Part shown: positions 20,034 to 43,446 of the stretch, piece after piece | Layout of the letters: every line of letters starts with the position of its first letter | Position numbering within the stretch: position 1 is the stretch's first letter | Assembly: GCA_963847185.1 (NCBI GenBank) | Contig: CAWJYV010000008.1 | Coordinates: 384,001 to 448,000, forward strand | DNA from: an uncultured Methanosarcinaceae archaeon | Lineage (GTDB): Archaea > Halobacteriota > Methanosarcinia > Methanosarcinales > Methanosarcinaceae | Length of the DNA: 64,000 nucleotides | Direction of reading: 5' to 3' | Notes under the pieces: generated by a model | Told to the model about the DNA's origin: nothing | Database searches by the model: none | What the model saw: only the letters and a program-made list of their open reading frames with translations | Translations under genes and position numbers: made by a program

Positions 20034-20852
20034 TCACAGAAACTTTGACAAAAGAGATGGTTCTGAAATACACTGTTCTGAAAAGTTACATTCTTTACAG
20101 AATTTCTCTTCTTTTTTTTCGGGCATGAGTCCAGATTTTATTTTTTCCACGCGTCTGCAGATCTGGAGGACTTCTCGTCTATCTGAACTTCGAATAATTA
20201 CTCTCCTGAGCAGGCCGAAACTTACATACTCCACAAAGGCAAATGGGACTTCTTTTCCACTTTCGGCTTCAAGAAGAAGAACAAGGGCCGCGGCATGCAA
20301 CCTATCCGAAGCCCAGACCCCCTGTTCAGGACACTTTCCGGGTTTCAAAATTGAGGGAACTTGTACACCTTCGAAACAAACAAGTTTGGATGGAACACCT
20401 TTCAGGTTAAGTCTTTTTGAAGAAAGAAAAGGCTCGGTTTTGATAGGGGTGAGTGCGGCAAGTATAGGTTCTTTCCCATATTCTTCAACTGCTTTGAGAA
20501 GGTTAGATGTTATTTCGGGAATTTTAGCTCTTGCCCGCGCCTCAGCTTCATCATATATTTCCTTTCCAATACTGGCAAATACTGCAGGAAACAGAATCGG
20601 AAGGTCTATACACCTCTGGACAAGGGAAGCTTCAAGCTCTTTAAAGAGGTTATCGGCATTTAACGAACACACTTTCACGATTTCAGGGTATGTCAGGGAG
20701 AGTTCTTTCAGGACTATGCTTTCGAGTCTTTGTTCATTTATTTCTGGAAACAGTTCAAATCCTCTGCTAACAAAATATACCTTTCTCGGGCACTTGATAT
20801 AGAGAAGGAGATCTGAAACATTTACTTCGGGATTCTGTGACTCAGCAGACAT
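20034..20852 (-). CDS. Solo Cas4/Dna2-like Fe-S protein
   Basis: VSDLLLYIKCPRKVYF N-terminal Cys plus C-terminal CKECNFSEQC (split four-Cys Fe-S site); no cas genes or array nearby. Confidence 0.8.
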   Translation of the reverse strand: MSAESQNPEVNVSDLLLYIKCPRKVYFVSRGFELFPEINEQRLESIVLKELSLTYPEIVKVCSLNADNLFKELEASLVQRCIDLPILFPAVFASIGKEIYDEAEARARAKIPEITSNLLKAVEEYGKEPILAALTPIKTEPFLSSKRLNLKGVPSKLVCFEGVQVPSILKPGKCPEQGVWASDRLHAAALVLLLEAESGKEVPFAFVEYVSFGLLRRVIIRSSDRREVLQICRRVEKIKSGLMPEKKEEKFCKECNFSEQCISEPSLLSKFL

Positions 20853-24529: not shown

Positions 24530-24794
24530 TTTCTTCACCAATCTTCAAAAATAAGTACGGAAAGCGGGAATGCAAGTAAATATTGCACCCGTGTTTCCTT
24601 TCTTCTATATTTTCTCATTTTTGATTATCGTAATTTTTGGGAAATTTCTCCTAACTGCCAATTTCCTAGCTGTCGATTTTTTGTTCCTGATTTTGGACTA
24701 AAGTTTTAAGTGCATTTGCTGTATTATTCAAGTTCAGAACTATTTTGAAGACTTTCCGGAATTTTTCCGGGTAGAATTGGAGATGTTTGTAAAT

Positions 24795-25328
24795 ATGATT
24801 GAAATAGAAGTCAAGGTCAGAGCTGATCATTCAAAAGTTCGCTCCGTCCTTAAGAATATAGGGGCAACGAAAGTTGGGGTTGAAAATCAGTCAGATTCTT
24901 ATTTTGCAGCCCCACACCGAGATTTTGCAAAAACCGACGAAGCTCTCAGAATTCGTTCTCTGGAAGGTCAGGCTGTCCTGACTTATAAAGGTCCTAAGAT
25001 TGATAAAGTCTCTAAAACCAGGGAAGAACTTGAAACTCCTGTAGATGAAGCCGCTACCACAAAAATACTCCATGCTCTTGGCTTCTCGGATGCGGGAATA
25101 GTTCGAAAAAAAAGGGAAGTATTCAGCGCAGGAGAGATAACTGTCTGCCTTGATGCAGTTGAAGGTCTCGGAGAATTTCTTGAAGTCGAAATTGTTGCTG
25201 AAAACGAAAAAGAACTCGATACTACAAGGGAAAAGCTGTTTGAATTCTTAAAACAATTTGGCGCCGGAGAAAAGGACTCTATCAGAACTTCTTACCTTGA
25301 AATGGTACTAGAGAAAAAAAGTCATTAA
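24795..25328 (+). CDS. cyaB: CYTH-domain protein (class IV adenylate cyclase-like)
   Basis: IEIEVK (ExExK), LRIR, LTYKGPK, REELE, FLEVE, SYLE. Confidence 0.9.
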   Translation: MIEIEVKVRADHSKVRSVLKNIGATKVGVENQSDSYFAAPHRDFAKTDEALRIRSLEGQAVLTYKGPKIDKVSKTREELETPVDEAATTKILHALGFSDAGIVRKKREVFSAGEITVCLDAVEGLGEFLEVEIVAENEKELDTTREKLFEFLKQFGAGEKDSIRTSYLEMVLEKKSH

Positions 25329-25469
25329 TCTACCCTATATTTGGAATTTGCTTCTTTAATCAATATTTTGAGTGGTAATATAAAAAGAAGATCCTGATAA
25401 CTTATGTTTAATTATTTACTCTTTCAAGAAGTAATGTATTTCTAAATTAGGGTATATACAAATGAAAAA

Positions 25470-27414
25470 AATAAACTCTTCCTAAAGAATCTCCAGCAAC
25501 AATAATATTTTCGTCCTTTAAAATATCAATAGCTGTAAACGGGACATCTCCTGTAAAACAAGAGACTTCAGTACTGATTTCTAAATCCCAAACTTTTAGG
25601 GTTTTATCCGTCGAACCTGAAACAACGTACCTTGGATTAGAGGTGACTGCGACTAAACCGGCAGAATCTGTGTGTCCTTTAAGTGACTTTTTAGCTACTT
25701 TTTTTTCCATGTCCAGAACTTTAATTGTTCTATCGTATGAAGTCGAAACTGCATATTTTCCATCAGGTGTAATCACAATTTTTACTGGTAAAGAGTTATG
25801 TCCTTCCAATGTCACAATTTCGTCTCCTCTTCCCAAACTCCAAATCTTGTGGGTACCATCTCCTGAAGCTGAAACAGCATACTTACCATCTGAAGTTATC
25901 GCTACTGAACCTATGGATCCTGAATGACCCACAAGATTTACTATCTCTATTCCTTTCTCTAAATCCCACACTTTAAGAATTTCATCATGTGAACATGATA
26001 CGACATACTTTGTATTGGGTATGATAGAAATAGTGGACACATAGTCTTTGTGCCCTTTCAATGTTGTTTTTTCTCTCCCTTTTTCCAAATCCCAAACTTT
26101 AAGTGTTTTATCGTCTGAACCTGAAATAGCATACTTTCCATCTGAGGTAATTGCTACTGAAGTCACTCCATCCTTATGCCCTCTTAAAGTCATTTGTTCG
26201 TTTTCTTTTTCCAAGTCCCAAACCCTTAAGGTTTTATCACTTGAACCTGAAACAACATAATTCCCATTAGGGGTTATCGCAAAATCAGTTACTGATTCAA
26301 AATGCCCTTTTAAAGTTGTTTTCTCTTCCCTTTTTCTCAAGTCCCAAACCTTTAGGGTTCCATCGTATGAACCTGAAACAGCATATTTTCCGTCAGGAGT
26401 GATCACTATTTTATTTACTGGTTTTGAATGTCCTTTAGATATTGCTTTGTCATCTCGTTTTCTCAAATCCCAAACTTTTAGAGTTTTATCACTTGAACCT
26501 GAAACAGCATATCTTCCATTAGGAGTAATCGCGATTTTATTTACTGAGTCTGAGTGTCCTATCAAAGTCGAAATTTCTTCCCTTTTTCCCAAGTCCCAAA
26601 CCTTTAGGGTTCCATCGTATGACCCTGAAACGACATGCTTTCCATCAGGTGTGATTATAATTTCAGTTACTGGCTCTGAATGCCCTTTTAAAGTTGCTTT
26701 TTCTTCTCCGGTCTCTAAGTCCCAAACCTTTAGGGTTCCATCAGATGAACCCGAAACAACAAGTTTCCCATCAGAAGGTATCGCAAAATCAGTTACTGGC
26801 TCTGAATGCCCTTTTAAAGTTGTTTTTTCTTCTCCTGTTTCCAAGTCCCAAACCTTTAGGGTTCCATCGTGTGAACCTGAAACAACATGTCTTCCATTAG
26901 AAGTGATTGCAATTGAAAATACCTTCTCGTGCCCTCTCAAAGTTGCTATTTCTTCCCCTTTTTCCAAATCCCAGACTTTAATGATATTATCTCCTGGAAT
27001 TTCATGTAGTGAATTCTCTAAATGGTCAAAAGCGGAAGAAGAAGTAGAAATTACGTATTTTCCATTGGGAGTTATTACAACTTTATTTATCGGCCCTTCA
27101 TGTCCTACTAATGTTGTTTTCTCTCTTCCTGTTCCCAAATCCCAAATTTTAATAGTTTTATCAAGTGAGCCCGAAACGACATATTTTCCGTCTGGAGTGA
27201 TAGCAACTGTTTGAACCCAATGTGTGTGTCCTTTAAGAGTCGTTTTTTCTTCTATTTTTTCCAAATCCCAAATCTTGATATTCTTATCTCCAAACAAGCA
27301 CATTATGTGGTAAGAACAAGAAGCGGCATATTTTCCGTCCAATGATACCGCAATTGCAGTTACAGGAGTGGAATGTCCCTGCAACGTCCCTTTTTCTACC
27401 CATTCATTCAAATC
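25470..27414 (-). repeat. WD40 repeat array, 126-bp period, several units highly similar in DNA
   Basis: AAGTCCCAAACCTTTAGGGTTCCATC identical at 26339, 26591, 26717 and 26843. Confidence 0.9.
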
Positions 27415-27422
27415 CCAAATTT

Positions 27423-28162
27423 GGCATTGGTATCTAAATACTGATATATATTATGAGAACTTATACCTCTTGATGAACTGTCCAAGATGTAAGAGTCTCG
27501 ATCATAATAAGAATGGTAAAGTTAATGGCCGTCAACGCTACAAATGCTCTGATTGTGGGTATAATTATTCAGTAGAGCTAAAATCAACTGCTAGCTCCCC
27601 TTCTGTTAAGAGACAGGCTTTACAACTCTATCTTGAAGGATTAGGATTTCGGTCAATAGGGCGTTTTTTGGGAGTAAGTCATGTTTCTATCCAAAAATGG
27701 ATAAAGAAATTTGGTCAGGAGTTAGAAGAACTAAAAAGCGAAAATGAGATCTCTATTGTTGAAATGGATGAGATGCACACTTACATCGGTAACAAAAAAA
27801 ATATTGCTGGATCTGGATTGCTGTTGATAGAGTTGGGAAAAAGTTCATCAACTGCTCTTTTGGCAGCAGAGGGACAGAAACTGGACAAAATCTCTGGGAA
27901 AAGTTAAAGGAAAAAGAGATTGAAAAAGTGATGACTGATCACTGGAGGGCATATGCAGAGTTCGTTCCAGATAAAATTCATACTCAATCAAAAGCAGAAA
28001 CGTATACTGTTGAAGGATATAACAGCATATTTAGACACTTTCTGGCAAGATTGAGAAGAAAGACAAAATGTTATACTAAGAGTCTTGAAATGCTAAAGTA
28101 TTCAGTTCTTCTCTTAATGAAATACAGAAATAATGAGTTAACTATATTTAGTTAACAATGCC
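27423..28162 (+). mobile_element. IS1-family insertion sequence, 740 bp, apparently intact
   Basis: Terminal IRs GGCATTGGTATCTAAATA / TATTTAGTTAACAATGCC (16/18 match); 8-bp TSD CCAAATTT at 27415-27422 and 28163-28170. Confidence 0.95.
27473..28155 (+). CDS. IS1 transposase (InsA/InsB, programmed -1 frameshift)
   Basis: MNCPRC...GRQRYKCSDC zinc finger and HTH; DEMHT, then A8 run at 27794-27801 shifts to YCWIWIAVDR...MTDHW...VEGYNS..RHFLARLRRKT. Confidence 0.9.
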
Positions 28163-31100
28163 CCAAATTTTAATAGTTTTGTCCGTTGAAGCAGAAATTG
28201 CATATTTTCCATTGGATGTGATAACAACATCGTTTATCGGATATGTGTGTGCTTCAAAAGTTCTTTTCAGCGAGCCACCGGGTGGTTTTAGGCAAGGTTG
28301 AAGAGGTATTATTTTGACACCGTTTTCTTTCCATTCAGTAGCTTGATCCAACAGTAGTCGTATCCCTTCATTTTGATTGAAAACGTGCAGTCGTCCAATA
28401 AGTTGTCCAGAAAATTGAGCTTCACCTTTAACTATAACGTCAAAAGAAAGCTGGATTGCTCCTTTCACAAGTTCAATTTCTGGTTCATTAGAGATAGATT
28501 CGTAATCATGAAGTAGGGAATTTAAATCAGGTATTCCTTTTCCGTCTTTTTCCTGCATTAAACGAACACATTTGATCTTTTTGCACATCCATTCAAAATT
28601 CAAAAGAAGCTTGCGAAGCTCTTCTCTTTTTCCTGCTTCTTTCATATGATATGCAAGATGTCTGTAAAAATAGCCATCTTCAGGACCTGAACTCCATTTA
28701 TTGTCACATTCCTTCCCATATGCTTCCAGTATATTGTTATGGAGGTTGGGAAAATCGCCTGCTTTTGCTCTCAGGTAGTCGAACTGAAGGTCATGTAAAG
28801 ATATAAGACGATTAGGGGCTTCACCATCAAGCCGCAAAAGAGATCTGTCTTTTAATTTAGTAAGCAGCTTTTCAACGTTACGTCTTTTCAGATTTCCAGT
28901 ATGTCCCCATAGAGTTGTAATCGTAGCTTCAGGCACTAATTCATCTTCAGGGAAGATCACTAATTCCTGATAACGCAGTACAGCATTAGGGTCTTCGTGT
29001 GAGAGAAAATCAACACTAACTTTCAATGCTCTTCCTACATTGGGATCTGGATAATTTGGTAAATGAGCTTCAATGAATTCAAGATCAGCTTCTTGTAAAG
29101 CTTCAAGGATATACATCCATGATATTCCACTTTTGGCCATAGCACCACATATGGATAGAGCAAGTGGTAGGTATCCGCATTCTCTGGCAATCTCTGCAGC
29201 GTGAGATGGCAATGAATTAACTTCCTCTTCGCACCAGTTTGCCAGAAGTTTCAAAGCGTCAGGTTCGCTTAGTACTTCGATTTTATGTTCTTGAGCTCCA
29301 AGAGAAGTGACCACATCATTATTTCGTGTGGTAATAAGTAGCCTGCAGCGTGAACCTAAAGCATTGACGAAAGGTGTAGCTTGTGGAACTTTCCATATGT
29401 CATCAAGTACAATGAGGCATATCTTTTCAGAAAGTACATTTGAAAGACTTGCTTCAGCTTCTCTTTTGCTTCTATAATTTGCAGGGTCATCTCCAAATTT
29501 TGTCCCAATCAATCTCATGTACTCAATAAGATCAGAATCCGATGTATCCAATCCAACAGTTACCCAGAATATCCCATCACAAAAAGCTCTACGAGTTTCC
29601 ACAGCGCGGGCAAAAGCTGTTGATAGTACAGATTTTCCCATTCCCCCCATACCTTGAAGGGCGGTAATCTTCTTTGAGGATGTGATTACCACAGGTTTAA
29701 CAGTGTCAGCTAATATTATTTCTTTAATTATATTGAGGTCATCTTTTCTAGGTAAGTAGTTAGGGGGTAGTGAGGGAACTCCAATTAAAGGACCAAGTGG
29801 AGGGATAGGCTCTTTTATAAGCCGGATCAGTTCTTCGAGCGCTTCGTCATAAGGACGCGTTTCTCGGAAATCCGGGCAATGTAGTTTCGACATTTCAGGG
29901 AGAAGTAATTTATAATCCCCCATACGCAAAATTGGAATTACACCTTTACTAAAAAGAAGGGCGTGTTCCCATTCATACCTAACAGAATCGGATTCTAATG
30001 CTTTAGGTCCGATAACGGCAATTAACAGGTCTGAGTCCTCAATTGCATCTCGTATTTCCTGTAGAAAAGTTCTGCCGCGATTTTTCATAGCGGCTCTGTC
30101 CCACCAGATCTTAAAACTTTTCTCTTTAAGATCTTTATAGAGTTTTTCTACAAATGGTTCGTCATCTTCTCGGGCATATGAAATAAATAAGGATGGTAGT
30201 TTTTCAACTGGACTTTCTTTTTCTTCAATTCCTATGGAGCTATCGCTTATAAGCTTTTTAATATCGTTAAATCCGTTTGCTACTTCTTTTTTTATATCGA
30301 AGTGCCGACGGTTGGCGAGGGCATTAGAAGCACCTGAAGATCCCTCATTTGCTGCTCTGTTTAGAGAAACTTGAATTCCTTCGTCCAGTACCTCAAATAC
30401 CTTAAATAAAAAAGAATTTCTTTCCTCGGTTTCCAGATCTCTTCTTCCATTCTCTATCCTTATTGTCTTGGGAAACAATGATACAAAATTTTTCTTGATA
30501 TCGTCAAGGTTTTTATTCATACCACTTTGAAACACATACAATTGCTTGATTATTGATTCGATATCCTCAGATTCGTATAAAATCTCACAAATAGCCTTTA
30601 TATCCTCTTGATATATCAGAGGAAACTCTTCTAATTCTGTTTTCGCTATAATTATTTTTTCAAAATCAGCTTCTCTAATTGCTGTTTTCTCAATCGGCTC
30701 CCTTTCAAAAATATAGCTTTTTACTTTATTATATAGGTAGACCCCTACGCTGCTTATCCCTCCACTTATTAAATCTTCAGCAGTAGGTTTCATGGTGTAC
30801 CCTTGGAATTTTAGTCTCATGTTTCGAGGAATTATTTCCCAATTAAACCTTTCGTTTTTGTTTATTTGGGATCTTTTTTAAGTTTTTACAAGTAAAAAAG
30901 TTCCTTCCCATTTTATTAGGTAGTTATGTTGATATTTGGTAAAACAAAACAATGATTATCTACAAGTTCTTTTTCTGATCCTTCCCTCGTAATCAGCCTT
31001 CTTACGCTGTTTTTGTCACGCTCGCTTGCGAGCGGCTTTTCTTATGAAATATAAAAAGGATATATTACTCCAAGAATACATTCTTTAAAAGAAGGAGCAA

Positions 31101-31789
31101 TTACTCAGAACCTGATTCCATTTTATTTCTATTTTCCCCATATCATTAAGGGTTATTGAGTCTCATTTAATAAATTAAGTGTAACTTCAGATATTTCTAA
31201 AAAAAAATATATTGTAATAGGATTATTTGCTATTCAAAGGGATAAAAAATTTTAATTTTTGGTTTCAAATATCTTTAATCCTTATTTTGGATTTTTTATT
31301 TAGTATACTAAATAAAAAAGCTGGATGCCGTAATTGAAAATAATTATAATTTGTCAATATATTAAGGTTTTATTCAACTTTATTACTCCTTTTAACGATT
31401 AATAAAATTTATTTTTCCGCATATCTGTCTATTATTATCTATTTTGATATAAGAGATTGCTTTATTAGCTTATTGTCAAAATAAACAATTTAAATCATTT
31501 ATTTTATACTCTCTTTTTAAAGAAACCTATTATTGCATCTTTATGAACATTTATCTGCATTTTTCCTATTTCGATTATCAACACACTATTAATATTTATT
31601 TTAGCTTTCAGTAGCTATATATCTTTAACTTAATATGATATTATCTAATGAATGTTCTTTCAATAGTAAAAAAGAATATTCATAGTAAAACTAGAACTTA
31701 AATAATCAATCTAACTAAGGGAATCAAATTGAAAGTACACCAGTTTAAGAATTGTGTTAAATCTGGAGAATAGTGGGGAATCAAGACAA

Positions 31790-33399
31790 ATGCCAAAACA
31801 AGTCTTTGACGTCATAAAAAAGGCAGGTTATCTTTTCATGGTAACCTTAATGTTATTAACACCTGCAGCTGCAGAGAGCAACGCAGGAAGCAAAAGCATT
31901 ACATATAACAATGGGACGAGTTCAGGGAACTCATTTGAAGATGTCTCATTGGAAAATGTCGAATTTAACAATGTGACATTTATCAATGTTACATTTATCA
32001 ATGTTTCAATTAACACTCTCACAATTAACAATCTCACAACAGTTAGCAATGGACTGGATGCAAATGGGCAGGATGCAGGAAGTGCCGAAAATAGCGCCGA
32101 AAATTGCACCGATACCAAAGTTGTCCGTAAATTATCGGGTTCCAAGCACTCTAGTCACAGTAATGCGGCCACAGCAGCAAGTACCGCAGCAGCGAGTGCT
32201 ACAGCAGCAAGTACCGCAGCAGCGAGTACTACACCAAGCAGTACCATAAATAGTGGAGATTATGCAGGGAGCAGATCATATAATGGAACTGATGCAGGAA
32301 ATACCGTAAATAATGGTACTTACGCAGCAGCAACCTTTAATAATGGTACTTACGCAGGAGCAATCTTCAACTATGGAGTATACGCAGGCTCCAGATTTTA
32401 TGGTGATGAGGCAGGAAACACTGAAAACAGTGGGGAATCTGCAGCAAGCACCTATAATGATGCAGATGGGTCAGGAAGCACCTATAATGATGGTGAGAAT
32501 GCAGGCTCCAGAGCTTACGAGGGGTCAGGAGCAGGAAGCACCATAAATAACGGTGATGATGCAGGCGCCTACCACAATATTGGGGATGAATCATACGCCT
32601 ACGTCAATTACGGGGATGAATCAGGTGCCAAAAATTATGTTGGGGATGAAGCAGGAAACTTCGAAAATAACGGTGAAAATGCAGGAAGCAGCTATAATGA
32701 GGGTGGTACAGCAGGTGGCTACCTCAATAACGGTGAGGAATCAGGCTCCAGAAATTATGCTGAGGATTCAGGAAACACCATTAATAATGGGGGAGCTGCA
32801 GGAAGCACCTATAACAGTGGTGGTGTAGCAGGCGGTAACCTTAATAACGGAGATGGATCAGGTTCCAGAAATTATGCTGGATCAGGAGCAGGAAGCACCG
32901 TAAATAATGGTGATGGAGCAGGAAGCACCATTAATAATGGGGGAGCTGCAGGAAGCACTGTAAACAATGGAGCGATAGCAGGTTCCAGAAATTATGGTGA
33001 GAATCAGGAAACACCTATAATAATGGAGTTGTAGCAGGAAGCACTGTAAATAATGGTATTGTAGCAGGAAGCACCGTAAATAATGCTGAGGATGCAGGCT
33101 CCAGAAATTATGAGGAGAATGGAGGAAACACCGTAAATATTGGTGAGAATTCTGGAAGCACCATCAATAATGGTGATAATGCAGGAAGCACCAACAATAA
33201 TGCGGAAGATGCAGGCTCCAGAAATTATGAGGAGAATGGAGGAAACACCGAAAATAACGGGGAGAATGCAGGAAGCACCAACAATAATGGTGAGAATGCA
33301 GGAAAAACCGAAAATGAAGGTGAGAATTCAGGAAGCAGAACATATAATGGGGATAATTCAGGAAATACCATAACCAATAATTATAACACAACCGTATAA
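31790..33399 (+). CDS. Secreted Asn/Gly/Ala-rich decapeptide-repeat protein (frameshift at ~33004)
   Basis: Signal peptide ending TPAAA; NVTFI pentapeptide tract; Ala/Ser/Thr linker; 30-bp repeats AGSTxNNGxx. The repeat continues in the -1 frame after 33004 to TAA at 33397-33399. Confidence 0.8.
32240..33390 (+). repeat. ~38 imperfect 30-bp coding repeats
   Basis: Recurrent GCAGGAAGCACC...AATAATGG and GCAGGCTCCAGAAATTAT units. Confidence 0.88.
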
Positions 33400-33608
33400 T
33401 GAGCAGAACTAAATACAAAACGTAAGTATTCAACCTGAGAAAAACGAGATCAATAGCAATCTAAATTAAGATGCAATCAGCAAATTTCAGTGGGCTGGTT
33501 CTCTTTAATTATGAGCTATTGATCTTTTTTTTGGTTTTTAATTTCTCTCTCTTTTTTCTATGGGATACTATGAAGGGATTAAGGTTAACAACACTTGCTA
33601 GTTCCCTC

Positions 33609-33678
33609 TAAAGAATATCAAAAGAATATCAAAAGAATATCAAAGAGAATGTCAAGAGAATGTCAAGAGAATGTCAAA
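33609..33678. repeat. 11-bp tandem repeat with two unit variants
   Basis: (A)AAAGAATATC x3 followed by AAGAGAATGTC x3. Confidence 0.85.
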
Positions 33679-33856
33679 AATTTTTTTCATTGAGTGTGGT
33701 CCAGGATAATTCACTCTAAATTCATCGCGTGACGTTCCTGACAATATTTATAAAATTCTGTTAATAGTACTGTTTTTATTCATATGTATTTTCATAAAAA
33801 TTGTTTGTTTATTCATTCATTACAAAATATGTAGAAATGAAAGTAATTTGGTCGAC

Positions 33857-34190
33857 ATTTACTTAATTCTACTTTTTGGGAGGCTCCGCCAGATATACTG
33901 GCGGGGGTACTCTATAATGTGTAAATTAAAAACAGTTCTGAGTCAATAGAAATATTCCTAATCTCGCAGGTTTTCAGCGTATTCCGGAACCTGCTTTATC
34001 CCTTATTTTATCTCTTTGTCTGGCATCAGGGCTGCTACAATCTCTGCACAATCATTGGCGCATCATGCCGTTTGATTCGACTCCGCAGAGTTGTCGAGTT
34101 TTACAAAGTCCGCCTACTTCATCAAGGGAAGGATTTCTTTTTATTCGGTCTCTTCAGCTTTTGCTTTTTCTGATTATTTTCCAGTTAGGT
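33857..34190 (-). pseudogene. Decayed duplicate of the metG 3' end and its downstream hairpin
   Basis: Matches 40814-41470 in blocks: CCGCCAGATAT/AACTGGCGG hairpin, TTTCAGCGTATTC stop region, TATCTCTTTGTCnGGCATCAGGGCTGCTAC, GCATCATGCCGTTTGATTCGACTCCnCAGAGTT, TCTTCAGCTTTTGCTTTTTC; has internal deletions. Confidence 0.88.
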
Positions 34191-34250
34191 ACCGAAAATT
34201 TTAGCTTGTACGTTTAGTGTCTTATGCAATCAAAGCAAAAGCTTTAATTG

Positions 34251-34297
34251 TATTTGAGTACTTATTCATAAGTACATATGAGCAGATGTTCATATAT
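34251..34297. promoter_or_regulatory. ArsR/SmtB (CadC-type) operator pair
   Basis: Inverted repeat ACATATGAGCAGATGTTCATATAT (34274-34297) and a second imperfect copy TTTGAGTACTTATTCATA, just downstream of a TTTAAT box and upstream of the arsR-family gene. Confidence 0.7.
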
Positions 34298-34335
34298 CAA
34301 TATGTTTAAAATTTACTTATATTGGAGAATTAGCT

Positions 34336-34689
34336 GTGGTTGAACTGGATAGGTGTGAGATCAATTGTATACACGATGAGGCGGTAAAAGCAGTACGTGA
34401 GGCTCTATTTAGTGAAGATATAGCTATTTCGCTGGCAGAACTTTTCAAGGCCCTGGGAGACCCGACAAGAGTGAAAATCTTGTTTTCCTTAATGACCAGA
34501 GAACTTTGTGTTTGTGACCTTTCAGCTGTCATAGGTGTTTCTGACTCGGCAGTATCTCACCAGCTTAAAATTCTCAGGACTTTACGTCTTGTCAAGTTCC
34601 GGAGAGAAGGCAAGATCCTGTATTATTCACTGGCTGACGATCATGTTGAGAAACTGTTTGCTCAGGGACTGGAGCATGTTACCGAATAA
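34336..34689 (+). CDS. ArsR/SmtB-family metal-sensing repressor (CadC/SmtB-like)
   Basis: N-terminal CEINCIH, FKALGDPTR, ELCVCDL, SAVSHQL, DDHV...LEH. Confidence 0.92.
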   Translation: MVELDRCEINCIHDEAVKAVREALFSEDIAISLAELFKALGDPTRVKILFSLMTRELCVCDLSAVIGVSDSAVSHQLKILRTLRLVKFRREGKILYYSLADDHVEKLFAQGLEHVTE

Positions 34690-34735
34690 AGCCGAAAAGA
34701 ACGAAGAATAATTTATGGCCGAGGGGGCATAAAGA

Positions 34736-37090
34736 ACGGAACCAACAGTATCATCTAAATTTCTCGTAACAGGCCTGGATTGTGCGGATTGCGCGGCCAA
34801 AGTGGAAAAAGCCGTTAAACGTATCCCTGGAGTTATTAATGCTTCAATCGTTTTCCCCGCTGGAAGACTCGACGTAGATTATGATCCTCAACAAACTGGT
34901 ACTACTCAAGTGATAGACAAAGTTAAAAAATTAGGTTACGAGGCACAGGAAGATAGGGAAAAAATATCAGATGTTTCTCAAACCACTGATTTTTGCATCA
35001 TAGGAATGGATTGTGCGGACTGTGCAGCTAAGCTGGAAAAACGTATTTCCAGAGTCCCTGGAGTCGAGATCGCGCAAGTAAATTTTGGCGCTTCTAAAAT
35101 GACAGTAACTCATAGTGGGCCAGTGGCAGAAATCCTGTCAACAATTGAAAAAATGGGTTACTCAGGGAAAGTGGATGAAGATCTTCGGATAAAGAATGAA
35201 CCAACCAGTTTTTGGAAATCAAATCAGTACGTCAAGCCCACAGTGATTTCTTTAATTATGCTGGTCTCCGGGCTTATTGCTGGGAGGCTGGAAGCACAGG
35301 AATTGATAGTCAATGGATTCTTTCTGACCGGGATTTTCCTAGGTGGTTTTCTACCAGCTAAGAACGGCATTTCCGTGCTAGTTAATGCCCGAGAATTTGA
35401 CATGAATTTCCTGATGACCATAGCAGTACTCGGTGCATCAGTACTCGGCACGTTTGAAGAAGCTGCAACGGTTGTATTTCTTTTCTCTTTCGGAAACGCT
35501 CTTCAGGGCTATACCCTCGATAAAACGAGGAATTCCATTAGGGCTTTAATGGAAATCACACCAAATGAGGCTTTAGTCAGGCGAGGAACGACTGAAATAA
35601 AGTTGCCTGTAAAAGAAATCGTAATCGGAGACATTATTATCGTTCTCCCGGGTGAAAGAATTGCTATGGATGGTGAAGTATCTACTGGTTATTCTACTGT
35701 AAATGAGGCCCCAATCACAGGAGAGTCTATCCCTGTGGAGAAACAAGCTGGGGATGAGATATATGCGGGAACGATCAACGAACGCGGTTCGCTTGAGATC
35801 AAAGTTACCAAACTAGCCAAGGATAATACAATATCCAGAATTATTCATATGGTAGAGGAAGCTCAGGGACAGAGGGCGCCATCTCAGCAATTTGTTGATA
35901 AGTTTGCGAAATATTATACTCCTCTTGTCATAGTTCTGGCTGTTCTGGTTGCTGCGGTGCCCCCATTGATTTTCGGACAACCTTTCGAGAAGTGGTTTTA
36001 CGAGGCAATGGCTATGCTTTTGGTAGCGTGCCCTTGCGCATTGGTAATCTCCACACCTGTATCTATCGTATCCGCAATCGGTAACGCAGCAAAAAACGGT
36101 GTACTCATTAAAGGGGGTGTGTACCTGGAAGAAGCCGGGGCTTTGTCAGTTATTGCCTTTGACAAAACCGGTACTCTTACAGAGGGAAAACCACAGGTAA
36201 CTGATATCATTCCTATTGATGGCATCCCGGATAAGGAATTCTTATCAATAGCATCAGCAATTGAAAGTCGGTCAGAACATCCTCTGGCTGATGCAATTGT
36301 CAAATCCGCTAAAGAACACGGAGCCGAAATATCTATCATATCTGCATTTGAGGCGATTCCTGGCAAAGGGGCCAGAGCAATAGTTCAGGGTAAGACTTAT
36401 CAGATCGGAAATTCGAGGCTCTTTACAGAGCAGGGAATAGATCTGAATCATGTGGGGGATGAAGTTTCACGTCTTCAGAATGAAGGGAAAACTGTAATGA
36501 TACTCGGAGATGACAAACGAATTCTGGGCCTCATTGCTGTGGCTGATATATTGCGGGAAAATTCCGGACAGGCTATCAATAAGCTGAAAAAGGCAGGTAT
36601 TAAAAAAGTCATTATGCTCACTGGAGATAATGAAAGCACAGCTCGTGCTATTGCCACAAAATCAGGAGTCGATGATTTCCGAGCAGACCTATTACCTGAA
36701 GACAAGGTAGATGCAATTAAGAGCCTTCTTGCTGAGCATGGCAAGGTAGCTATGGTGGGAGATGGTGTCAATGATGCACCTGCTATGGCAATATCCACAG
36801 TCGGCATTGCAATGGGAGCTGCAGGCACTGACACCGCACTTGAAACTGCAGATATTGCCTTGATGGCAGACGATCTTACAAAACTGACCGACACAATCCG
36901 ACTGAGCAGGAAAACGCTGGGCATCATCAAACAAAACATTGCTTTTGCGTTGATAATCAAAGGATTAATTCTTCTGCTGGTCATTCCAGGATGGCTAACT
37001 ATGTGGATGGCTGTAATAGGAGATATGGGCAGCTCACTTCTGGTTACTCTGAATGCAATGAGATTATTGAGAGTAAAACACGAGGACTAA
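34736..37090 (+). CDS. cadA: Heavy-metal (Cd/Zn/Co) P1B-type ATPase with two N-terminal HMA domains
   Basis: GLDCADC (upstream of the called GTG at 34802) and GMDCADC; TGES, CPC, DKTGTLT, SEHP, GDGVNDAP; frame open from ACG 34736 behind a GAGGGGG RBS. Confidence 0.9.
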   Translation, partial: TEPTVSSKFLVTGLDCADCAAKVEKAVKRIPGVINASIVFPAGRLDVDYDPQQTGTTQVIDKVKKLGYEAQEDREKISDVSQTTDFCIIGMDCADCAAKLEKRISRVPGVEIAQVNFGASKMTVTHSGPVAEILSTIEKMGYSGKVDEDLRIKNEPTSFWKSNQYVKPTVISLIMLVSGLIAGRLEAQELIVNGFFLTGIFLGGFLPAKNGISVLVNAREFDMNFLMTIAVLGASVLGTFEEAATVVFLFSFGNALQGYTLDKTRNSIRALMEITPNEALVRRGTTEIKLPVKEIVIGDIIIVLPGERIAMDGEVSTGYSTVNEAPITGESIPVEKQAGDEIYAGTINERGSLEIKVTKLAKDNTISRIIHMVEEAQGQRAPSQQFVDKFAKYYTPLVIVLAVLVAAVPPLIFGQPFEKWFYEAMAMLLVACPCALVISTPVSIVSAIGNAAKNGVLIKGGVYLEEAGALSVIAFDKTGTLTEGKPQVTDIIPIDGIPDKEFLSIASAIESRSEHPLADAIVKSAKEHGAEISIISAFEAIPGKGARAIVQGKTYQIGNSRLFTEQGIDLNHVGDEVSRLQNEGKTVMILGDDKRILGLIAVADILRENSGQAINKLKKAGIKKVIMLTGDNESTARAIATKSGVDDFRADLLPEDKVDAIKSLLAEHGKVAMVGDGVNDAPAMAISTVGIAMGAAGTDTALETADIALMADDLTKLTDTIRLSRKTLGIIKQNIAFALIIKGLILLLVIPGWLTMWMAVIGDMGSSLLVTLNAMRLLRVKHED

Positions 37091-37132
37091 ACCTGAATCT
37101 ACGATCTAAAGAATAAAAAAGGAGTAAGAAAG

Positions 37133-37333
37133 ATGGAAACTTTAAAGGTATTAGGTGTGGACTGCAACAACTGTGCAGCGAATGTGCGTAAAGCCCTGGA
37201 GGGCATTAATGGCATCGAAAAGCTTGACATAAGGCTTTCAGATAAAATAGCGGTGGTGACCTTTGATCCTGACAAGGTTGGCAGGCAGGAAATTACTGAA
37301 AATGTGGAAGATTTCGGCTTCGAAGTGGAATAA
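37133..37333 (+). CDS. CopZ-like HMA metallochaperone
   Basis: GVDCNNC motif, 66 aa, GF near C-terminus; AAGGAG RBS. Confidence 0.85.
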   Translation: METLKVLGVDCNNCAANVRKALEGINGIEKLDIRLSDKIAVVTFDPDKVGRQEITENVEDFGFEVE

Positions 37334-37452
37334 ACAGCATATACATTTGTGGTTCTGGTAACTCCATCCCTCAATATTTTTAATTATTTGACAAGTTAAT
37401 TAATTAAATCCCCACCCCTCTTGAGATTTGAGCTTTTTCATTTTTCAATTTG

Positions 37453-39030
37453 TTACTTTTTGACTACTATATATCCCGACATAGTTTTAGCATTGCTGCC
37501 AGCTTTATTAGTTGATGTCAGGGTAACAGTATATTTCCCAACTTTACTGTAAATGTGAGAAGGATTCTTAGATGTTGAATAAGTTCCATCTCCAAAGCTC
37601 CATTTCCATGAAGTTGGACTGTTAGTGCTTCTGTCAGTGAACTGTACTTTCAATGGAGCTTTTCCTGATACAGGAGATGCAGTGAATGCGGCTAAAGGAG
37701 CTTTTACAGGAGCCGCTTTTACAGTTATGTAATTTGTTTTTATTTCTGTGTCCTTGCCTGCTGCATTACTTACGGTCTCTTTCACCGTATAAGTTCCAGG
37801 TTTTGTATAGGTATATGTTGGATTATACTGAGTTACCAGAGCAGATCCATCTCCAAAGCTCCATTTCCATGCGGTTGGTGATCCTGTACTTTTGTCAGTA
37901 AATGTTACTTTCAAAGGGGCATTTCCTGAAGTAGTGGAAGCATAAAAATCAGCAGTCGGGAGGCTTGAACCATAACTAAGGGTGCCCATGTAAATATCAT
38001 AGCTTCCTTTATATCCATCTGCCCAGACTATTCTATTATTGTAGATAGCTGGATTCACCTGATATGGATCACTTGCCTCATAGTCTGGATCATCCCCATG
38101 ATAGTCTTCCCAAGGGGTGATTAAGGTTTCCTCATGAGTGGAAAGATTATACATGAAGATATCCGTGTTGCCTGATGCATCATCACGGTTGTCCTGATAC
38201 ACTATCCTGTCACCGTAAATATCAGGCTCACATGCATATCCGCTGGTGGTTATTTGAATCTCCTTCTGAGTGGATAGGTCGTACATGTAGATATCGTGGC
38301 TATCGTAGTTTCCATTGCGATCATCTTCCCACACTATCTTATTATTGTAGATAGCAGGCCTGTATGCAAATCCGCTGGTAGTTATTTGAGTCTCCTTCTG
38401 AGTGGATAGGTCGTACATGTAGATATTCCCGCCCCAAGGCGAATCTTGCCACACTATCCGGTTACCAAAGATGTCTGGACAGATTGCAGGTCCACTGGTG
38501 ATGATCCGAATCTCCTTCTTAGTGGAAAGATCATACATGTAGAGATTCCAGTTTTCAATATAATTACCATTTTCATCTAGTGTTCCTCCATTGCGTCCAT
38601 CTTCCCACACTATTTTGGTACCATAAATTACAGGAGAACACTGATTTGAATTATTGGTGGTGATCCGAGTTTGCTTTTTAGTGGAGATGTCTTGCATATA
38701 GATATCGCTATTTCCATTGCGCTTATCTTCCCATACCACAGTGTTCCCGTAGATATCAGGATGTGTCTGATCTGATAAATTGGTGGTGCAGGTTTCCTTG
38801 TGAGTTGAAAGATTGTATATGTAGATATCCCAATTTTCATTGCGCTTATCCTGCCACACTATGTTGTTACCGTAGATAACAGGATTATCTGAATCAAACG
38901 GATTGGTGGTGATCCGAGTTTCAGTAATCGCGGGTGAAGCTGCAGATGCCGTAGATGAAACAAGAATCAAAAATAAAATCAGGGCTGTGGATGCTAAAGC
39001 TATTGAATATAATTTCTTCCTATTTCCCAT
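37453..39030 (-). CDS. Cell-surface protein: signal peptide, Methanosarcina beta-propeller repeats, 2 PKD domains
   Basis: Repeated P(A/D)IYG..IVW.D.RNG..DIY.YDLST; WKWSFGDG twice. Confidence 0.9.
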   Translation of the reverse strand: MGNRKKLYSIALASTALILFLILVSSTASAASPAITETRITTNPFDSDNPVIYGNNIVWQDKRNENWDIYIYNLSTHKETCTTNLSDQTHPDIYGNTVVWEDKRNGNSDIYMQDISTKKQTRITTNNSNQCSPVIYGTKIVWEDGRNGGTLDENGNYIENWNLYMYDLSTKKEIRIITSGPAICPDIFGNRIVWQDSPWGGNIYMYDLSTQKETQITTSGFAYRPAIYNNKIVWEDDRNGNYDSHDIYMYDLSTQKEIQITTSGYACEPDIYGDRIVYQDNRDDASGNTDIFMYNLSTHEETLITPWEDYHGDDPDYEASDPYQVNPAIYNNRIVWADGYKGSYDIYMGTLSYGSSLPTADFYASTTSGNAPLKVTFTDKSTGSPTAWKWSFGDGSALVTQYNPTYTYTKPGTYTVKETVSNAAGKDTEIKTNYITVKAAPVKAPLAAFTASPVSGKAPLKVQFTDRSTNSPTSWKWSFGDGTYSTSKNPSHIYSKVGKYTVTLTSTNKAGSNAKTMSGYIVVKK

Positions 39031-39153
39031 TTTATTCCTCCTTCCATATTCTCATCAACAAATTTAATACTTATATTCAGGCTTTATACACAAGCTTAAA
39101 CCTTTTTTTTTACTGTGAAATTTTTAAAAGTTCTCTAAACGTAATCATTATAT

Positions 39154-39283
39154 GAGCTGATCCCAAAACTCTAAATTGCGTCTCAAAATCCTGTATTCCG
39201 AGTAATCAATTGAGTTTTATATCACGAAAAACAATTCTAATTATTTAATTATTTGAGACTAAAATTTATTTTGGGATGAGCTC
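39154..39283. mobile_element. MITE, 130 bp, non-coding
   Basis: Terminal IR GAGCTGATCCCAAAA / TTTTGGGATGAGCTC (14/15), plus inner GTCTCAAA/TTTGAGAC; no clear TSD. Confidence 0.75.
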
Positions 39284-39718
39284 GTTACGAATGTGTCTTT
39301 CTTTGTTGGTTTATTAGTAAGAAAGATAGTTTCCAAAAAAATGTATTAATTTTAAATTTTGGAACGTACTAACTTTGAACTAATTTTTTAATTTTGGTTT
39401 TCAATCACTGCTGCCACATCAAACCAAATTCCAAATGTTACAACTCTTACATTTTTATTTAACTTTTGTGACCAAAGTCTCTAACCATCAGTAGCTTAAT
39501 AATTTTCATAAAGTGATGTGCCGAAAGTTCTGTAAAATTGTTCCTCTCTTAAGGCTCTTTTATTCTGGTTCAAATCCTACAGAATATATAAGTGCTGAAT
39601 CGTTTTTTCATTAAATATACACGATAAAAAGTGCAATTATTACTCTTTCAATTATCTTTTGGAACTGAGTCTTAATAGGTACTTGGTATTTTATCAATAT
39701 TAAAAAGGTGGTTTACTA

Positions 39719-40567: not shown

Positions 40568-40936
40568 CTGAGTGTCAAGTCATCACTCACTTAATTATTC
40601 AGGCCTGCTTAATCTGCATGTTTGTGAACTAATGTTAGTACAGATACTATAGGAATAGTTCGTTTCTATCTGCATGTGTATTATGAAATGCAATAAAAGA
40701 AGAGTAATATATAGAGATACTAAAAAGCAATAGCAAAAGGCTTAATTTAATGCATTGCTATTTTAACTTTTTTCAAGTAGTTAGTACTCCCAATAATTCC
40801 AAAAATAACCAAAATTTACTTACTTCTACTTTTTTGGAAGGCGCCGCCAGATAAACTGGCGGAGGCATCCTATATGCGTAGATTCAAAAAGACTTCTGGA
40901 TAAGAAGTCTTTTTCGTCAAGACGGTTGTAGTTGTT

Positions 40937-43075: not shown

Positions 43076-43446
43076 TATTATCCCCATCTATTTTTTGTGA
43101 ATATATGTTCTTTCGATGACTGCAATTTTGAAATATGTTTCGCTTATTGTGTTTTTTACAAGGTAATCTATCTGAGGGATTGTTAATAATCTTATATATA
43201 GAAGGGTAGAATGTAGAGAAATATTTATAATAGCTCCTACATTTCAAACTGTCACGTAGATTTTATTAATCTGCAGGTAATCAACCTGCAAATGTGTGCG
43301 CAGTTATCTGCAAATAACTAATCTGTAGGTTATCTGTCTTGCAGTTACCTGCTCAGTATTAAAATGTCTGGAGTTTTCATTAAAGTTATTAACGGGGCAT
43401 GATCGGAGTTTAAAACGAAAAATCCACATATGCGGTCCTGTAAGAT

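Follow-up and report, generated by a model that had tools for sequence, protein, structure and literature searches.

The window, a 64,000-nucleotide stretch of DNA from an uncultured Methanosarcinaceae archaeon, carries a gene that is split by an IS1-family insertion sequence (IS). Judged by its sequence, the encoded protein is best explained as a single-polypeptide NLR/Apaf-1-type STAND sensor (NB-ARC clade) of a Methanosarcina species. When intact, it was probably an NLR-like defence sensor encoded by a single gene and cleaving NAD+ once activated; here it is inactivated. The gene and the element dividing it are located as follows.

28148..30820, minus strand: upstream open reading frame (ORF) piece, 890 aa
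25447..27411, minus strand: downstream ORF piece, 654 aa
27423..28161, plus strand: IS1-family insertion sequence, 739 bp, delimited by boundaries, inverted repeats and duplication
27414-27422 and 28162-28170: 9-bp target-site duplication CCCAAATTT, direct copies flanking the IS

The initial annotation took the two ORFs for one gene of ~1540 aa, and this is confirmed. In silico removal of the IS together with one copy of the duplication yields an allele of 4626 nt that is in frame and encodes 1541 aa, one residue off that estimate, with a single, terminal stop codon (junction ...KTIKIW/DLNEW..., the slash marking the join). The frame comprises, in order, a ~190-aa N-terminal module (N-dom), a TIR domain, an NB-ARC domain, an Apaf-1-type winged helix domain (WHD) and helical domain, and 16 WD40 repeats. 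Comparison with homologues, most of which start at the equivalent position, suggests that M10 (30793) may be the true start, giving 1532 aa. In the 969-aa Methanosarcina barkeri homologue P0027, the same stretch is uninterrupted at the insertion site. A 678-nt metagenome contig (run X5, ~93% identical) is also continuous over this site: it joins 27413 to 28162, and the 748 bases skipped are exactly the IS plus one duplication copy.

The IS cuts the gene inside the first WD40 blade. It resembles the IS1 family in its length of 739 bp, its terminal inverted repeats (imperfect, starting GGCATTG) and its 9-bp target duplication. The transposase is likewise distributed over two frames, a zinc-ribbon/HTH InsA-like frame and a DDE InsB-like frame, with an A-run between them, and matches both NCBIfam IS1 (NF033558; 127 bits, cut-off 100) and Pfam DDE_Tnp_IS1. 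It differs in being an archaeal member, and has 11 near-full-length copies in this genome (90-100% identity, this one counted), in addition to 9 partial matches. The inactivation is best explained as recent and due to insertion of an IS1-family element that is active. As this genome holds the gene only as a pseudogene, no "system" operates here, and the initial ranking as the best candidate system in the window overstates the case.

It is very improbable that the IS-truncated 890-aa product, which comprises N-dom, TIR, NB-ARC and HD2 with the greater part of one blade, is made and functional. Such a product could be a sensor-less, constitutively primed or dominant-negative form, and its ORF is intact from the start to a stop codon 4 codons into the IS. 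Truncated homologues are frequent in databases (969, 952, 827, 813 and 756 aa); for the 969-, 827- and 756-aa forms the longest recorded contigs measure 86 kb or more, and for the 952- and 813-aa forms the recorded contigs of 6.4 and 14.6 kb mean that a contig end may explain the truncation. However, Apaf-1 becomes constitutively active once its WD40 region is taken away, and an active, unrestrained TIR NADase would be expected to be toxic; the 890-aa product is therefore more likely silent or inactive. The RNA-library contigs found are ~91% identical and therefore derive from another organism, not from this genome.

The domains and motifs are placed as follows.

30236..30793, minus strand: N-dom, aa ~10-195, a portable domain without annotation whose first helix is moderately hydrophobic
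29825..30187, minus strand: TIR, aa 212-332 (Pfam TIR_2 E 3.9e-22, profile positions 2-122 of 122)
29972..29974, minus strand: codon of the putative catalytic Glu E283, the Glu of "SDSVRYEW"
29012..29677, minus strand: NB-ARC, aa 382-603 (Pfam NB-ARC E 2.6e-28), with Walker A at aa 390-397, Walker B at 469-476, TTR at 497-499 and GxLPLAL at 549-555
28559..28972, minus strand: Apaf-1-type winged helix (aa 617-683) and HD2 (aa 691-754), from Pfam
28171..28300, minus strand: first part of the WD40 region, with blade 1 as far as the point where the IS inserted (Pfam WD40 aa 850-886)
25447..27422, minus strand: remainder of the WD40 region, with the last part of blade 1, all of blades 2-16 and the stop codon

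All descriptive statements of the initial annotation on the sequence were borne out. HMM searches matched TIR_2, NB-ARC, APAF1_C and WD40, and the proposed Apaf-1-like domain order held, with Apaf-1 as the best match among solved structures for aa 347-751 (NB-ARC to HD2, E 5.6e-32). The NB-ARC motif set is full and its ATPase motifs are intact: all 133 sequences compared share G390, G393, G395, K396, D473 and R499, while 127 have D474 and 132 have H676, the His of the LHD motif, which leaves the Walker A Lys, Walker B Asp, sensor Arg and LHD His conserved in 127-133 of 133. The APAF-1-like WHD scores 26.4 bits, just below the cut-off of 27, and the helical domain named as APAF1-type matches APAF1_C with E 1.1e-12.

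The TIR domain retains a Glu at the catalytic position, as had been noted. E283 is invariant in 126/126 aligned family TIRs and W284 in 125/126. Among solved structures, the closest relative of the TIR is the enzymatically active bacterial NAD+ hydrolase AbTIR (E 3.8e-6 and 8.4e-6). The direct HMMER alignment with AbTIR, displaced by 4 residues, places L289, not E283, on the AbTIR Glu; E283 is equated with this Glu on the strength of its alignments without gaps to 7uxr and 7ylf and of the same distance from strand C. The E208A mutant of AbTir is described as NADase-dead (PMC10641520). According to a 2026 preprint, three TIR-like domains from prokaryotes (TeTIR) lacked NADase activity when assayed on their own, and therefore the presence of the Glu is no guarantee of activity. 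In the PADLOC scan, matches are confined to the TIR part and no Avs or bNACHT-type model matched, a point against the defence reading. It is improbable that the TIR does not deplete NAD+ but either supplies an effector encoded elsewhere with a nucleotide signal such as a cADPR isomer, in a Thoeris-like manner, or acts as a scaffold only. PMC10641520 reports cADPR variants made by bacterial and archaeal TIRs, and the TIR region does yield weak matches to ThsB and Thoeris-type models. These matches all lie far below the family cut-offs, however, and a conserved partner gene was not seen, the neighbours differing among the window, the locus of a homologue in genome G033 and the corresponding sites of relatives.

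The estimate of ~16 WD40 repeats agrees with the 16 units counted by eye and regex in the IS-free reading; Pfam scores one stretch before the IS and 14 after it (E 1.4e-144). At the DNA level, the part of the region beyond the IS repeats in tandem every 126 bp (7.4 copies, 73% matches). The repeats are alike internally, with a mean pairwise identity of 55% among eleven 42-aa units and variable sites at repeat positions 13-18 and 33. Compared with its closest homologues, the protein is mostly 81-92% identical in TIR and NB-ARC (67% in the TIR for P0031). Over the full WD40 region, identity drops to 49-54% for the six homologues reaching beyond the third blade; for the truncated P0027 it is 88% over 138 aligned residues. 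Homologue lengths vary from 1379 to 1522 aa. These alignments show faster evolution in the WD40 sensor than elsewhere in the protein, and conserved TIR/NB-ARC beside diverged WD40 is a pattern typical of immune receptors.

The least ordinary part of the protein turned out to be N-dom. The N-terminal region of ~200 aa, initially listed as unknown, is present and has no Pfam match even at E 0.1, and a 9-member N-dom profile gave no credible match in PDB and Pfam. Only 13 representatives were found among 1.84 billion at E<=1e-3, and the members found are confined to Methanosarcinales. N-dom also heads NACHT, NACHT-HEAT, TPR-GreAB_C-PIN and NB-ARC-WD40 proteins, and occurs as stand-alone proteins of 181-194 aa. 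Bell/HeLo/MLKL/CC-type N-terminal domains are presented as cell-death execution domains in a preprint (Dyrka 2020). Like these, N-dom is located at the extreme N-terminus of NLR-like proteins and also exists in short stand-alone form. Further similarities to Bell-type domains are the moderately hydrophobic first helix (best 17-aa Kyte-Doolittle mean 0.7-1.85, a modest value), the M-D or M-E start of several members and the restriction to Methanosarcinales, the order for which archaeal Bell domains are reported. Compared with Bell-type domains by description, N-dom is longer (~180 aa against ~100-140 aa). We infer that any role of N-dom would be that of a portable accessory domain, serving as a second, possibly membrane-directed, effector or as a homotypic adaptor.

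The gene is located in a variable block between two conserved genes.

24777..25328: conserved CYTH gene, block edge
25329..40936: variable (accessory) block, 15.6 kb, between the CYTH and MetRS genes
40937..43087: conserved MetRS gene, block edge

The flanking order HTH-HMGS-thiolase-DUF35-CYTH-[gap]-MetRS-S49-SerRS is kept in three relatives, where the CYTH-MetRS gap spans 263 bp, 3.75 kb and 4.2 kb instead of 15.6 kb. At this site, relatives carry a phosphoribosyltransferase gene, unknown genes and an IS110. The accessory location initially proposed is thereby supported. Besides the split gene, the block includes a repeat of 2.4 kb in three copies with a 426-aa ORF, genes for a P-type metal ATPase and a PKD-domain protein, and an HNH gene whose product matches a type IV restriction model. 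As the HNH gene is the only other defence-like gene and stands beside those for the metal ATPase and the PKD protein, the block does not qualify as a clear defence island. The split gene is not a core gene. It is the sole NB-ARC match in this genome; the organism lives without an intact copy. Among 24 same-genus genomes searched, there was no close orthologue and none with an intact TIR-to-HD2 match, the only such match (G019, 55% identical) containing 4 in-frame stops. The best intact match in this search, 56% identical, is from G033, which represents another family of the order. The gene is thus accessory and patchy in the genus. As the neighbours of the G033 homologue are housekeeping genes only, and the CYTH gene is conserved with or without an adjoining STAND gene, the STAND gene is considered self-contained. 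A large number of homologues (41-67% identity) begin with the TIR; those with a source name stem from other Methanosarcinales-type archaea and from bacteria, e.g., Ignavibacteriales, Omnitrophica, Phycisphaerae and Desulfuromonadales.

Instead of acting against viruses, the same machine could discriminate kin or non-self, or mediate developmentally programmed death of cells, within the multicellular aggregates of Methanosarcina, in parallel to the fungal HNWD/HET-E allorecognition NLRs, although this is unlikely. Fungal HNWD genes reportedly combine similar WD repeats with variation at few positions, and the repeats here are also alike (mean 55%) and vary at few positions. In two papers (Dyrka 2020 preprint; Kaur 2020 eLife PMC7159879), prokaryotic NLR-like architectures and related conflict systems are linked to multicellular or aggregate-forming lineages, with Methanosarcina named. 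On the other hand, the gene is very patchy in the genus and repeatedly inactivated (by the IS here and by 4 stops in G019), which suits dispensable defence cargo better than a role in development. A further point against this reading is the restriction-like HNH of the block.

For the preferred defence sensor, we infer trigger, oligomerisation, NADase activity and outcome from knowledge of the family. The 16-blade WD40 region, sufficient for two beta-propellers, would bind a foreign, most likely viral, protein, and ligand binding would release autoinhibition. The NB-ARC module would then exchange or bind nucleotide and oligomerise into an apoptosome- or resistosome-like ring, on which clustered TIRs could form active NADase sites around the invariant Glu283. 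The resulting NAD+ cleavage would arrest or kill the infected cell, i.e. abortive infection.

The initial designation as an uncharacterised system goes too far: the architecture is known as a kind, being already described for prokaryotes including Methanosarcina, and close homologues in M. mazei and M. barkeri are annotated as "NB-ARC/TIR domain-containing protein". N-dom is the extra, so far unnamed part. NLR-like proteins combining NB-ARC/NACHT with WD/TPR are reported to be abundant in Methanosarcina (preprint, Dyrka et al. 2020), and a further study (Nature 2026, PMC13581612) lists prokaryotic orthologues of Apaf-1 that carry WD40 sensors with the defence-associated STANDs. The literature searched yielded no experiments on the TIR-Apaf-1-like family or on any archaeal TIR-STAND, and as far as searched, the TIR/NB-ARC-WD40 STAND family is defined in silico only.

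The protein shares with Apaf-1 (PDB 3sfz, 1z6t, 5juy) the NB-ARC NBD, HD1, WHD with LHD motif and HD2, and both end in a long WD40 region. The protein differs in its N-terminal effector, TIR plus the unnamed module instead of CARD, and there is no sign of cytochrome c or caspase partners. It also has 16 WD repeats, whereas Apaf-1 has 15.

Prokaryotic TIR/NB-ARC (AP-ATPase) STAND proteins are said to have been covered by Koonin & Aravind 2002 and Leipe 2004. Those with WD40/TPR sensors show the same TIR-NB-ARC-WD40 order, and their descriptions include "bacterial Apaf-1 orthologues" among defence-associated STANDs (Kaur 2020 PMC7159879; Nature 2026 PMC13581612). Unlike the others, the Methanosarcina clade adds a ~190-aa module before the TIR.

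Plant TNLs (e.g. RPP1/ROQ1 resistosomes; cf. the TeTIR preprint) likewise combine an N-terminal TIR with catalytic Glu, an NB-ARC and a repeat sensor. Their activation is modelled as induced TIR proximity on an oligomeric NOD ring. The protein described here differs in having a WD40 instead of an LRR sensor, in lacking an EDS1-type pathway and in being encoded by a single archaeal gene. Fungal HNWD/NWD NLRs (HET-E, HET-D, HET-R; cited in Dyrka 2020) similarly have a STAND NTPase followed by highly similar 42-aa WD40 repeats, few variable surface positions and repeat-number variation between alleles. They use NACHT rather than NB-ARC, together with HET or other N-terminal domains, and act in allorecognition, unlike the defence role proposed here.

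The candidate immune receptor gene, called the STAND gene here, is located on the reverse strand (25447..30820) and is split by an insertion sequence (IS). The parts of the locus are:

28148..30820, reverse strand: upstream half of the STAND gene, ORF of 890 aa
27423..28161, forward strand: IS1-family element of 739 bp, with imperfect terminal inverted repeats starting GGCATTG
25447..27411, reverse strand: downstream half of the STAND gene, ORF of 654 aa

The gap between the two ORFs comprises 736 bases, and the IS fills it together with a few bases on each side. A 9-bp direct duplication, CCCAAATTT, flanks the IS at 27414-27422 and 28162-28170. The two ORFs of the element, which lie in overlapping frames, match the zinc ribbon and HTH of InsA and the DDE domain of IS1 (Pfam), and the transposase scores 127 bits against the NCBIfam IS1 model NF033558 (cut-off 100). 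The element thus possesses everything by which the IS1 family is recognised, namely an IS1-type transposase, terminal inverted repeats, and a target duplication of 8-9 bp. Its own genome contains 20 matches to it, 11 of which, the window copy counted, are near full length with 90-100% identity. Three near-full-length copies are 99% identical to the window copy, and because of these multiple near-identical copies the element is considered active now or recently.

The IS-free reading called for in the initial annotation was obtained by deleting the IS and one copy of the duplication in silico. It spans 4626 nt in one frame of 1541 codons, giving a product of 1541 aa with a single terminal stop, and the reconstructed junction joins ...KTIKIW to DLNEW.... 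Two independent observations identify this uninterrupted frame as the ancestral state. The database homologue P0027 (969 aa, 82% identical; source name Methanosarcina barkeri str. Wiesmoor) continues across the site as ...KTIRIWDLNEWIEKG..., and a 678-nt contig of ~93% identity from the groundwater metagenome run X5 joins 27413 directly to 28162. The contig omits exactly 748 bases (739 + 9), with the nine bases fitting either side of the joint. Together with the reconstructed frame, these unbroken sequences confirm the earlier proposal that the two ORFs are one gene. Neither half carries a stop or frameshift besides the IS, therefore the inactivation is recent. In most homologues the start is the equivalent of M10 (30793), from which a product of 1532 aa would result. 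In its own genome, IS1 insertion has recently disabled the gene within a variable block, and the annotation should show one disrupted gene instead of two proteins.

On the coding strand, the IS1 target reads AAATTTGGG, codons for K-I-W-(D/G) that occur repeatedly in blades 1-3 of the STAND gene; WD40 genes with such codon usage may therefore be repeated IS targets. P0027 (MSBRW_0460), the closest named homologue, stops abruptly inside WD blade 3 with ...DKTIK and three other residues, despite its record being a 4.87-Mb contig. The truncation suggests that P0027 was disrupted in a separate event, independent of the one in the window, at a K-I-W-D codon run similar to that of the IS site described here.

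Each of the four Pfam families proposed for checking the domain order (TIR_2, NB-ARC, APAF1_C, and WD40) is matched. TIR_2 covers aa 212-332 over the whole profile (E 3.9e-22, 79.4 bits, cut-off 28), and the TIR fold is found with AbTIR, 7uxr, and TLR TIRs as relatives in the PDB. The initial annotation had placed the Glu of SDSVRYEW at the catalytic position. This residue, E283, lies in the alpha-C region like the catalytic Glu and is conserved in 126 of 126 TIRs, and W284 in 125 of 126, in an alignment of the query and 125 homologues (of the 132 that matched, the seven partial ones are not included). Without gaps, E283 falls on the Glu of YE(L) in 7uxr, a bacterial TIR, and in 7ylf, a TLR TIR. 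AbTIR is the best TIR match in the PDB (E 3.8e-6), in a HMMER alignment that is locally off by four residues. Despite this shift, E283 is taken as the equivalent of the AbTIR Glu, because the spacing from strand C to the Glu is 11 residues in both. In SARM1, the equivalent catalytic Glu is E642. The exchange E208A in AbTir abolishes NAD+ hydrolysis according to PMC10641520, from which the Glu of the AbTIR motif is presumably E208.

The NB-ARC domain (Pfam) spans aa 382-603 (E 2.6e-28, 99.4 bits, cut-off 23.5) and contains the following motifs:

aa 390-397: Walker A, GMGGMGKS
aa 469-476: Walker B, LIVLDDIW
aa 549-555: GYLPLAL, with P552 kept in 128 of 133 sequences

Conservation was assessed in 133 sequences, comprising the query and 132 of 137 BLAST-matching homologues; five with partial cover were left out. 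G390, G393, G395, K396, D473, and R499 are unchanged in all 133. W476 is present in 132, as is H676, the His of LHD, and D474 in 127. The domain carries the Walker A (GxxGxGK[ST]) and Walker B (hhhhDD) signatures of a STAND NB-ARC/AP-ATPase P-loop, and also the sensor-1 Arg R499 (TTR) and the GxP/GLPL motif, and the MHD-type His H676 is present in the winged helix. An Apaf-1-like winged helix at aa 617-683 scores 26.4 bits, just under the cut-off of 27, and is followed by APAF1_C (HD2) at aa 691-754 (E 1.1e-12, 48.5 bits, cut-off 22.8). For aa 347-751, Apaf-1 is the best match among solved structures (E 5.6e-32), with the alignment passing through its LHD. Pfam scores 15 WD40 stretches, one before the IS and 14 after it, and counting of the repeats gives 16 units, of which eleven measure exactly 42 aa. 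The order of an APAF1_C helical domain and WD40 beta-propeller repeats places the protein in the Apaf-1-like subfamily. The NB-ARC motif set, APAF1-type helical domain, and ~16 WD40 repeats of the initial annotation are all recovered by Pfam, the 133-sequence alignment, and the repeat count.

PADLOC-DB v2 yields five partial matches, all within aa 177-336 and hence in the TIR: PDC-S66, SAVED-TIR, Aga-TIR (twice), and ThsB. No Avs/bNACHT or other PADLOC-DB v2 model matches the NOD, and HEAT-ARM_XIII is the only model matched by the WD part. All matches of the STAND protein to NCBIfam models are far under the cut-offs. PADLOC and NCBIfam are without a model for the STAND protein beyond its TIR.

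The STAND gene is the sole NB-ARC match in its own 4.04-Mb genome. A search of 41 genomes of the order with the 890-aa part gave some match in 14, its own included, and TIR-to-HD2 cover outside its own genome in two only. The first of these, in G033 from another family of the order, is intact, 1006 aa long, and 56% identical. The second, in G019 from the same genus (G019:C39:4220-6131, locus L004), is 55% identical and has four in-frame stops. The other matches in this search are NB-ARC paralogues with 30-34% identity or single-domain matches. The genome of the STAND gene also contains a 56-aa open frame within which a stretch of 38 residues (G000:C7:830244-830357) matches aa 491-528 of the NB-ARC domain with 66% identity. 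The G019 homologue and this stretch are further decayed relatives. Of 8000 proteins scored in the protein database search, 221 have E<=1e-3. Closer relatives with 68-82% identity and 99-100% cover are found in Methanosarcina mazei, M. barkeri, Methanosarcina sp., and metagenomes. With identities of 41-67%, many homologues start at the TIR, and the source names given for these are Ca. Argoarchaeum, a Ca. Methanoperedens plasmid, Ignavibacteriales, Omnitrophica, Phycisphaerae, and Desulfuromonadales. Judged from these sequences, the STAND family is evidently widespread, patchy, and exchanged between archaea and bacteria.

At most 28% of the words sampled from 26900-28700 are found in any sequencing run. 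In the four runs compared, deep cover is confined to the IS, so that they are uninformative about habitat and expression. Contigs of X20, an RNA-seq library of the isolate 'organism A', are ~91% identical and cover 26908-27133 and 28325-28572 only. They hint at transcription of a related gene in another organism, or may be DNA carry-over.

The STAND gene is part of a variable block (25329..40936) bordered by the conserved CYTH and MetRS genes. Further contents of the block are:

31175-33575: repeat unit of ~2.4 kb, three copies in the genome with 93-100% identity; ORF 31754..33034 of 426 aa
34802..37090, forward strand: P-type heavy-metal ATPase (HMA + E1-E2 ATPase), accessory cargo
39719..40567, forward strand: HNH protein, 282 aa
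within the block: PKD-domain protein

Three complete relatives share the order HTH-HMGS-thiolase-DUF35-CYTH-gap-MetRS-S49-SerRS. Their CYTH-MetRS gaps measure 263 bp, 3.75 kb, and 4.2 kb, compared with 15.6 kb here. The two relatives with inserts have a phosphoribosyltransferase gene and unknown ORFs in the gap, and one of them an IS110 transposase. The variable gap and the patchy distribution uphold the location in an accessory block that was suggested initially. As possible borders of the block, no tRNA was found in 20000-46000 and no integrase in the Pfam scans. CYTH was considered as a functional partner and rejected, as it is found at E<=1e-20 in 29 of the 31 genus genomes searched (its own included), with or without the STAND gene. 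The 2.4-kb unit matches nothing in Pfam, NCBIfam, or PADLOC, and its other two copies contain an open frame of 564 aa; the unit may represent a mobile element of unclassified type, or else a gene that was duplicated recently. Relatives of the metal ATPase in five complete genus genomes are just 38-43% identical.

Association with a defence island, on which the defence role had been made to depend, is weakly indicated. [quoted passage not shown] The remaining cargo is not defence-related, and the G033 homologue is surrounded by housekeeping genes. The block points weakly to a defence island. A solitary gene for a Cas4-like nuclease (20034..20852, reverse strand) adjoins an HTH gene. Among three relatives for which the compared locus extends as far as this gene, two keep it in synteny (68-76% identity), and no CRISPR-cas locus is found beside it within the window.

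The domains of the STAND protein differ in their identity to the seven closest homologues.

Identity of the STAND protein to its seven closest homologues, by domain
N-terminal module: 72-81%
TIR: 88-92%; 67% in the homologue P0031
NB-ARC: 81-91%
WHD-HD2: 61-84%
WD40 region: 49-54%; 88% over 138 aligned residues of the truncated P0027

Complete homologues vary in length (1379, 1480, 1484, 1520, and 1522 aa); the one of 1480 aa is P0026 from M. mazei. Within the STAND protein, the eleven 42-aa repeats have a mean identity of 55%, with entropy peaks at positions 13-18, right after the GH dipeptide, and 33, and lesser peaks at positions 4 and 7 in the inter-blade linker. The WD40 DNA has a period of 126 bp, with 7.4 copies and 73% matches. 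A conserved enzyme and switch combined with a fast-changing repeat sensor is the pattern that would be expected of an arms-race receptor, the opponent being left unspecified.

The mechanism proposed for the intact protein is modelled on Apaf-1, plant TNLs, and Avs proteins of bacteria, in part after Kaur 2020 and the TeTIR preprint. At rest, the protein would be an autoinhibited monomer. Binding of a ligand to the WD40 propellers would open it, whereupon the NB-ARC module would oligomerise in a nucleotide-dependent manner and bring the TIR domains together for NAD+ cleavage. In its intact form the protein would probably be a self-contained NAD+-depleting abortive-infection device. This is likelier than a generator of signals for a separate effector, because no conserved neighbour exists. 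The same machine might instead serve self/non-self or developmental cell death in aggregates, which is judged improbable. According to one preprint, isolated prokaryotic TeTIR domains are inactive, so NAD+ cleavage by the putative TIR NADase cannot be assumed; a signalling or scaffold TIR, or an active-fragment variant, jointly accounts for the likelihood left by the other two readings. None of these mechanisms is at work in the genome of the STAND gene, because the gene is broken.

The TIR is preceded by an N-terminal module (residues ~10-195) that has no Pfam match at E<=0.1. A phmmer search with the module against 1.84 billion representatives returned 13 proteins only at E<=1e-3, and it occurs in 4 of 151 genomes of the order, its own included. 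The earlier 890-aa search detected it in three further genomes of the same genus, a scan of genome contigs with the single module added one locus in a Methanosarcina sp. MAG, and no second copy is present in its own genome. Against the PDB, the untrimmed profile gave WD40 matches from long rows only, and the trimmed profile nothing credible (best E 0.071). Pfam at E<=10 gave five unrelated one-off matches among nine module members. Complex prediction with two copies of the module gave no answer (score 0.00, mark 0.42) and is evidence neither way. The module is found in these contexts:

TIR-NB-ARC-WD40: the STAND clade here, and locus L018 in genome G162
NB-ARC-WD40 without TIR: protein P0035
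NACHT: loci L012 and L013, protein P0142
NACHT-HEAT: locus L019, same genome as L018
TPR + GreA/B C-terminal + PIN: L014:1592-5482 (G007:C63), 1296 aa, PF20698 'PIN-TPR-GreABC', E 2.7e-25
unknown C-terminal domain: proteins P0143 and P0150
480-aa protein: P0144
stand-alone: proteins P0152 (181 aa) and P0147 (194 aa)

The modules of L018 and L019 are 62-64% identical to the query. The L014 architecture makes the module common to STANDs and a non-STAND conflict-type system. Its identity with TeTIR is unlikely, because it precedes a canonical TIR. A role as homotypic adaptor, like the 'effector-associated domain' of the Aravind group, would fit the architectures as well as that of an execution domain. 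The latter has been proposed, as a HeLo/MLKL/CC-like function, for the Bell domain, whose archaeal cases are from Methanosarcinales only according to Dyrka et al. (10.1101/2020.01.06.895854). As a lead, the module recalls Bell in occurring both in NLR heads and stand-alone, in its restriction to Methanosarcinales, and in an acidic residue 2 in several members (several divergent ones start M-D or M-E). The Bell/HeLo pattern comprises a helical bundle of ~100-140 aa and a hydrophobic N-terminal helix with an acidic residue at position 2-3, which the module fits loosely in length and hydrophobicity; its first helix is moderately hydrophobic, with a best 17-residue Kyte-Doolittle mean of 0.7-1.85 in nine members, which is not decisive. 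Possibly, although this is held with rather low confidence, it represents a new Methanosarcinales-restricted family of NLR heads, a Bell/HeLo/CC- or Death-like executioner or adaptor on at least five receptor chassis and stand-alone. If so, the STAND protein would be a two-effector archaeal NLR, combining a membrane or adaptor head with a TIR NADase, and a tractable archaeal model for the exchange of NLR effector domains.

Methanosarcina is genetically tractable, thus an intact orthologue could serve to test whether archaea already combine the TIR-on-STAND-ring principle of plant TNLs with WD40 sensing as in Apaf-1. The STAND gene is ordinary in its class and dead here, yet it offers a good way into the biology of archaeal NLRs, and the module common to several receptor types is a concrete new domain family.

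According to Dyrka 2020, Methanosarcina has abundant proteins of the 'NLR-like' type with NB-ARC/NACHT and WD/TPR, other genera of archaea have few or none, and TIR is one of the domains often found at the N-terminus of prokaryotic NLRs. Fusions of TIR to AP-ATPases are noted by Kaur 2020 (PMC7159879). Furthermore, a 2026 survey based on structural models and genomic association reports that defence-associated STAND clades include orthologues of Apaf-1 from bacteria, whose beta-propeller sensors are similar in structure (PMC13581612). In the full-text literature searched, which covers few subscription journals, no experimental study of an NLR-like or TIR-STAND protein from archaea was found. 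The architecture class of the STAND protein is already known, and its new feature is the additional, unnamed, and shuffled N-terminal module.
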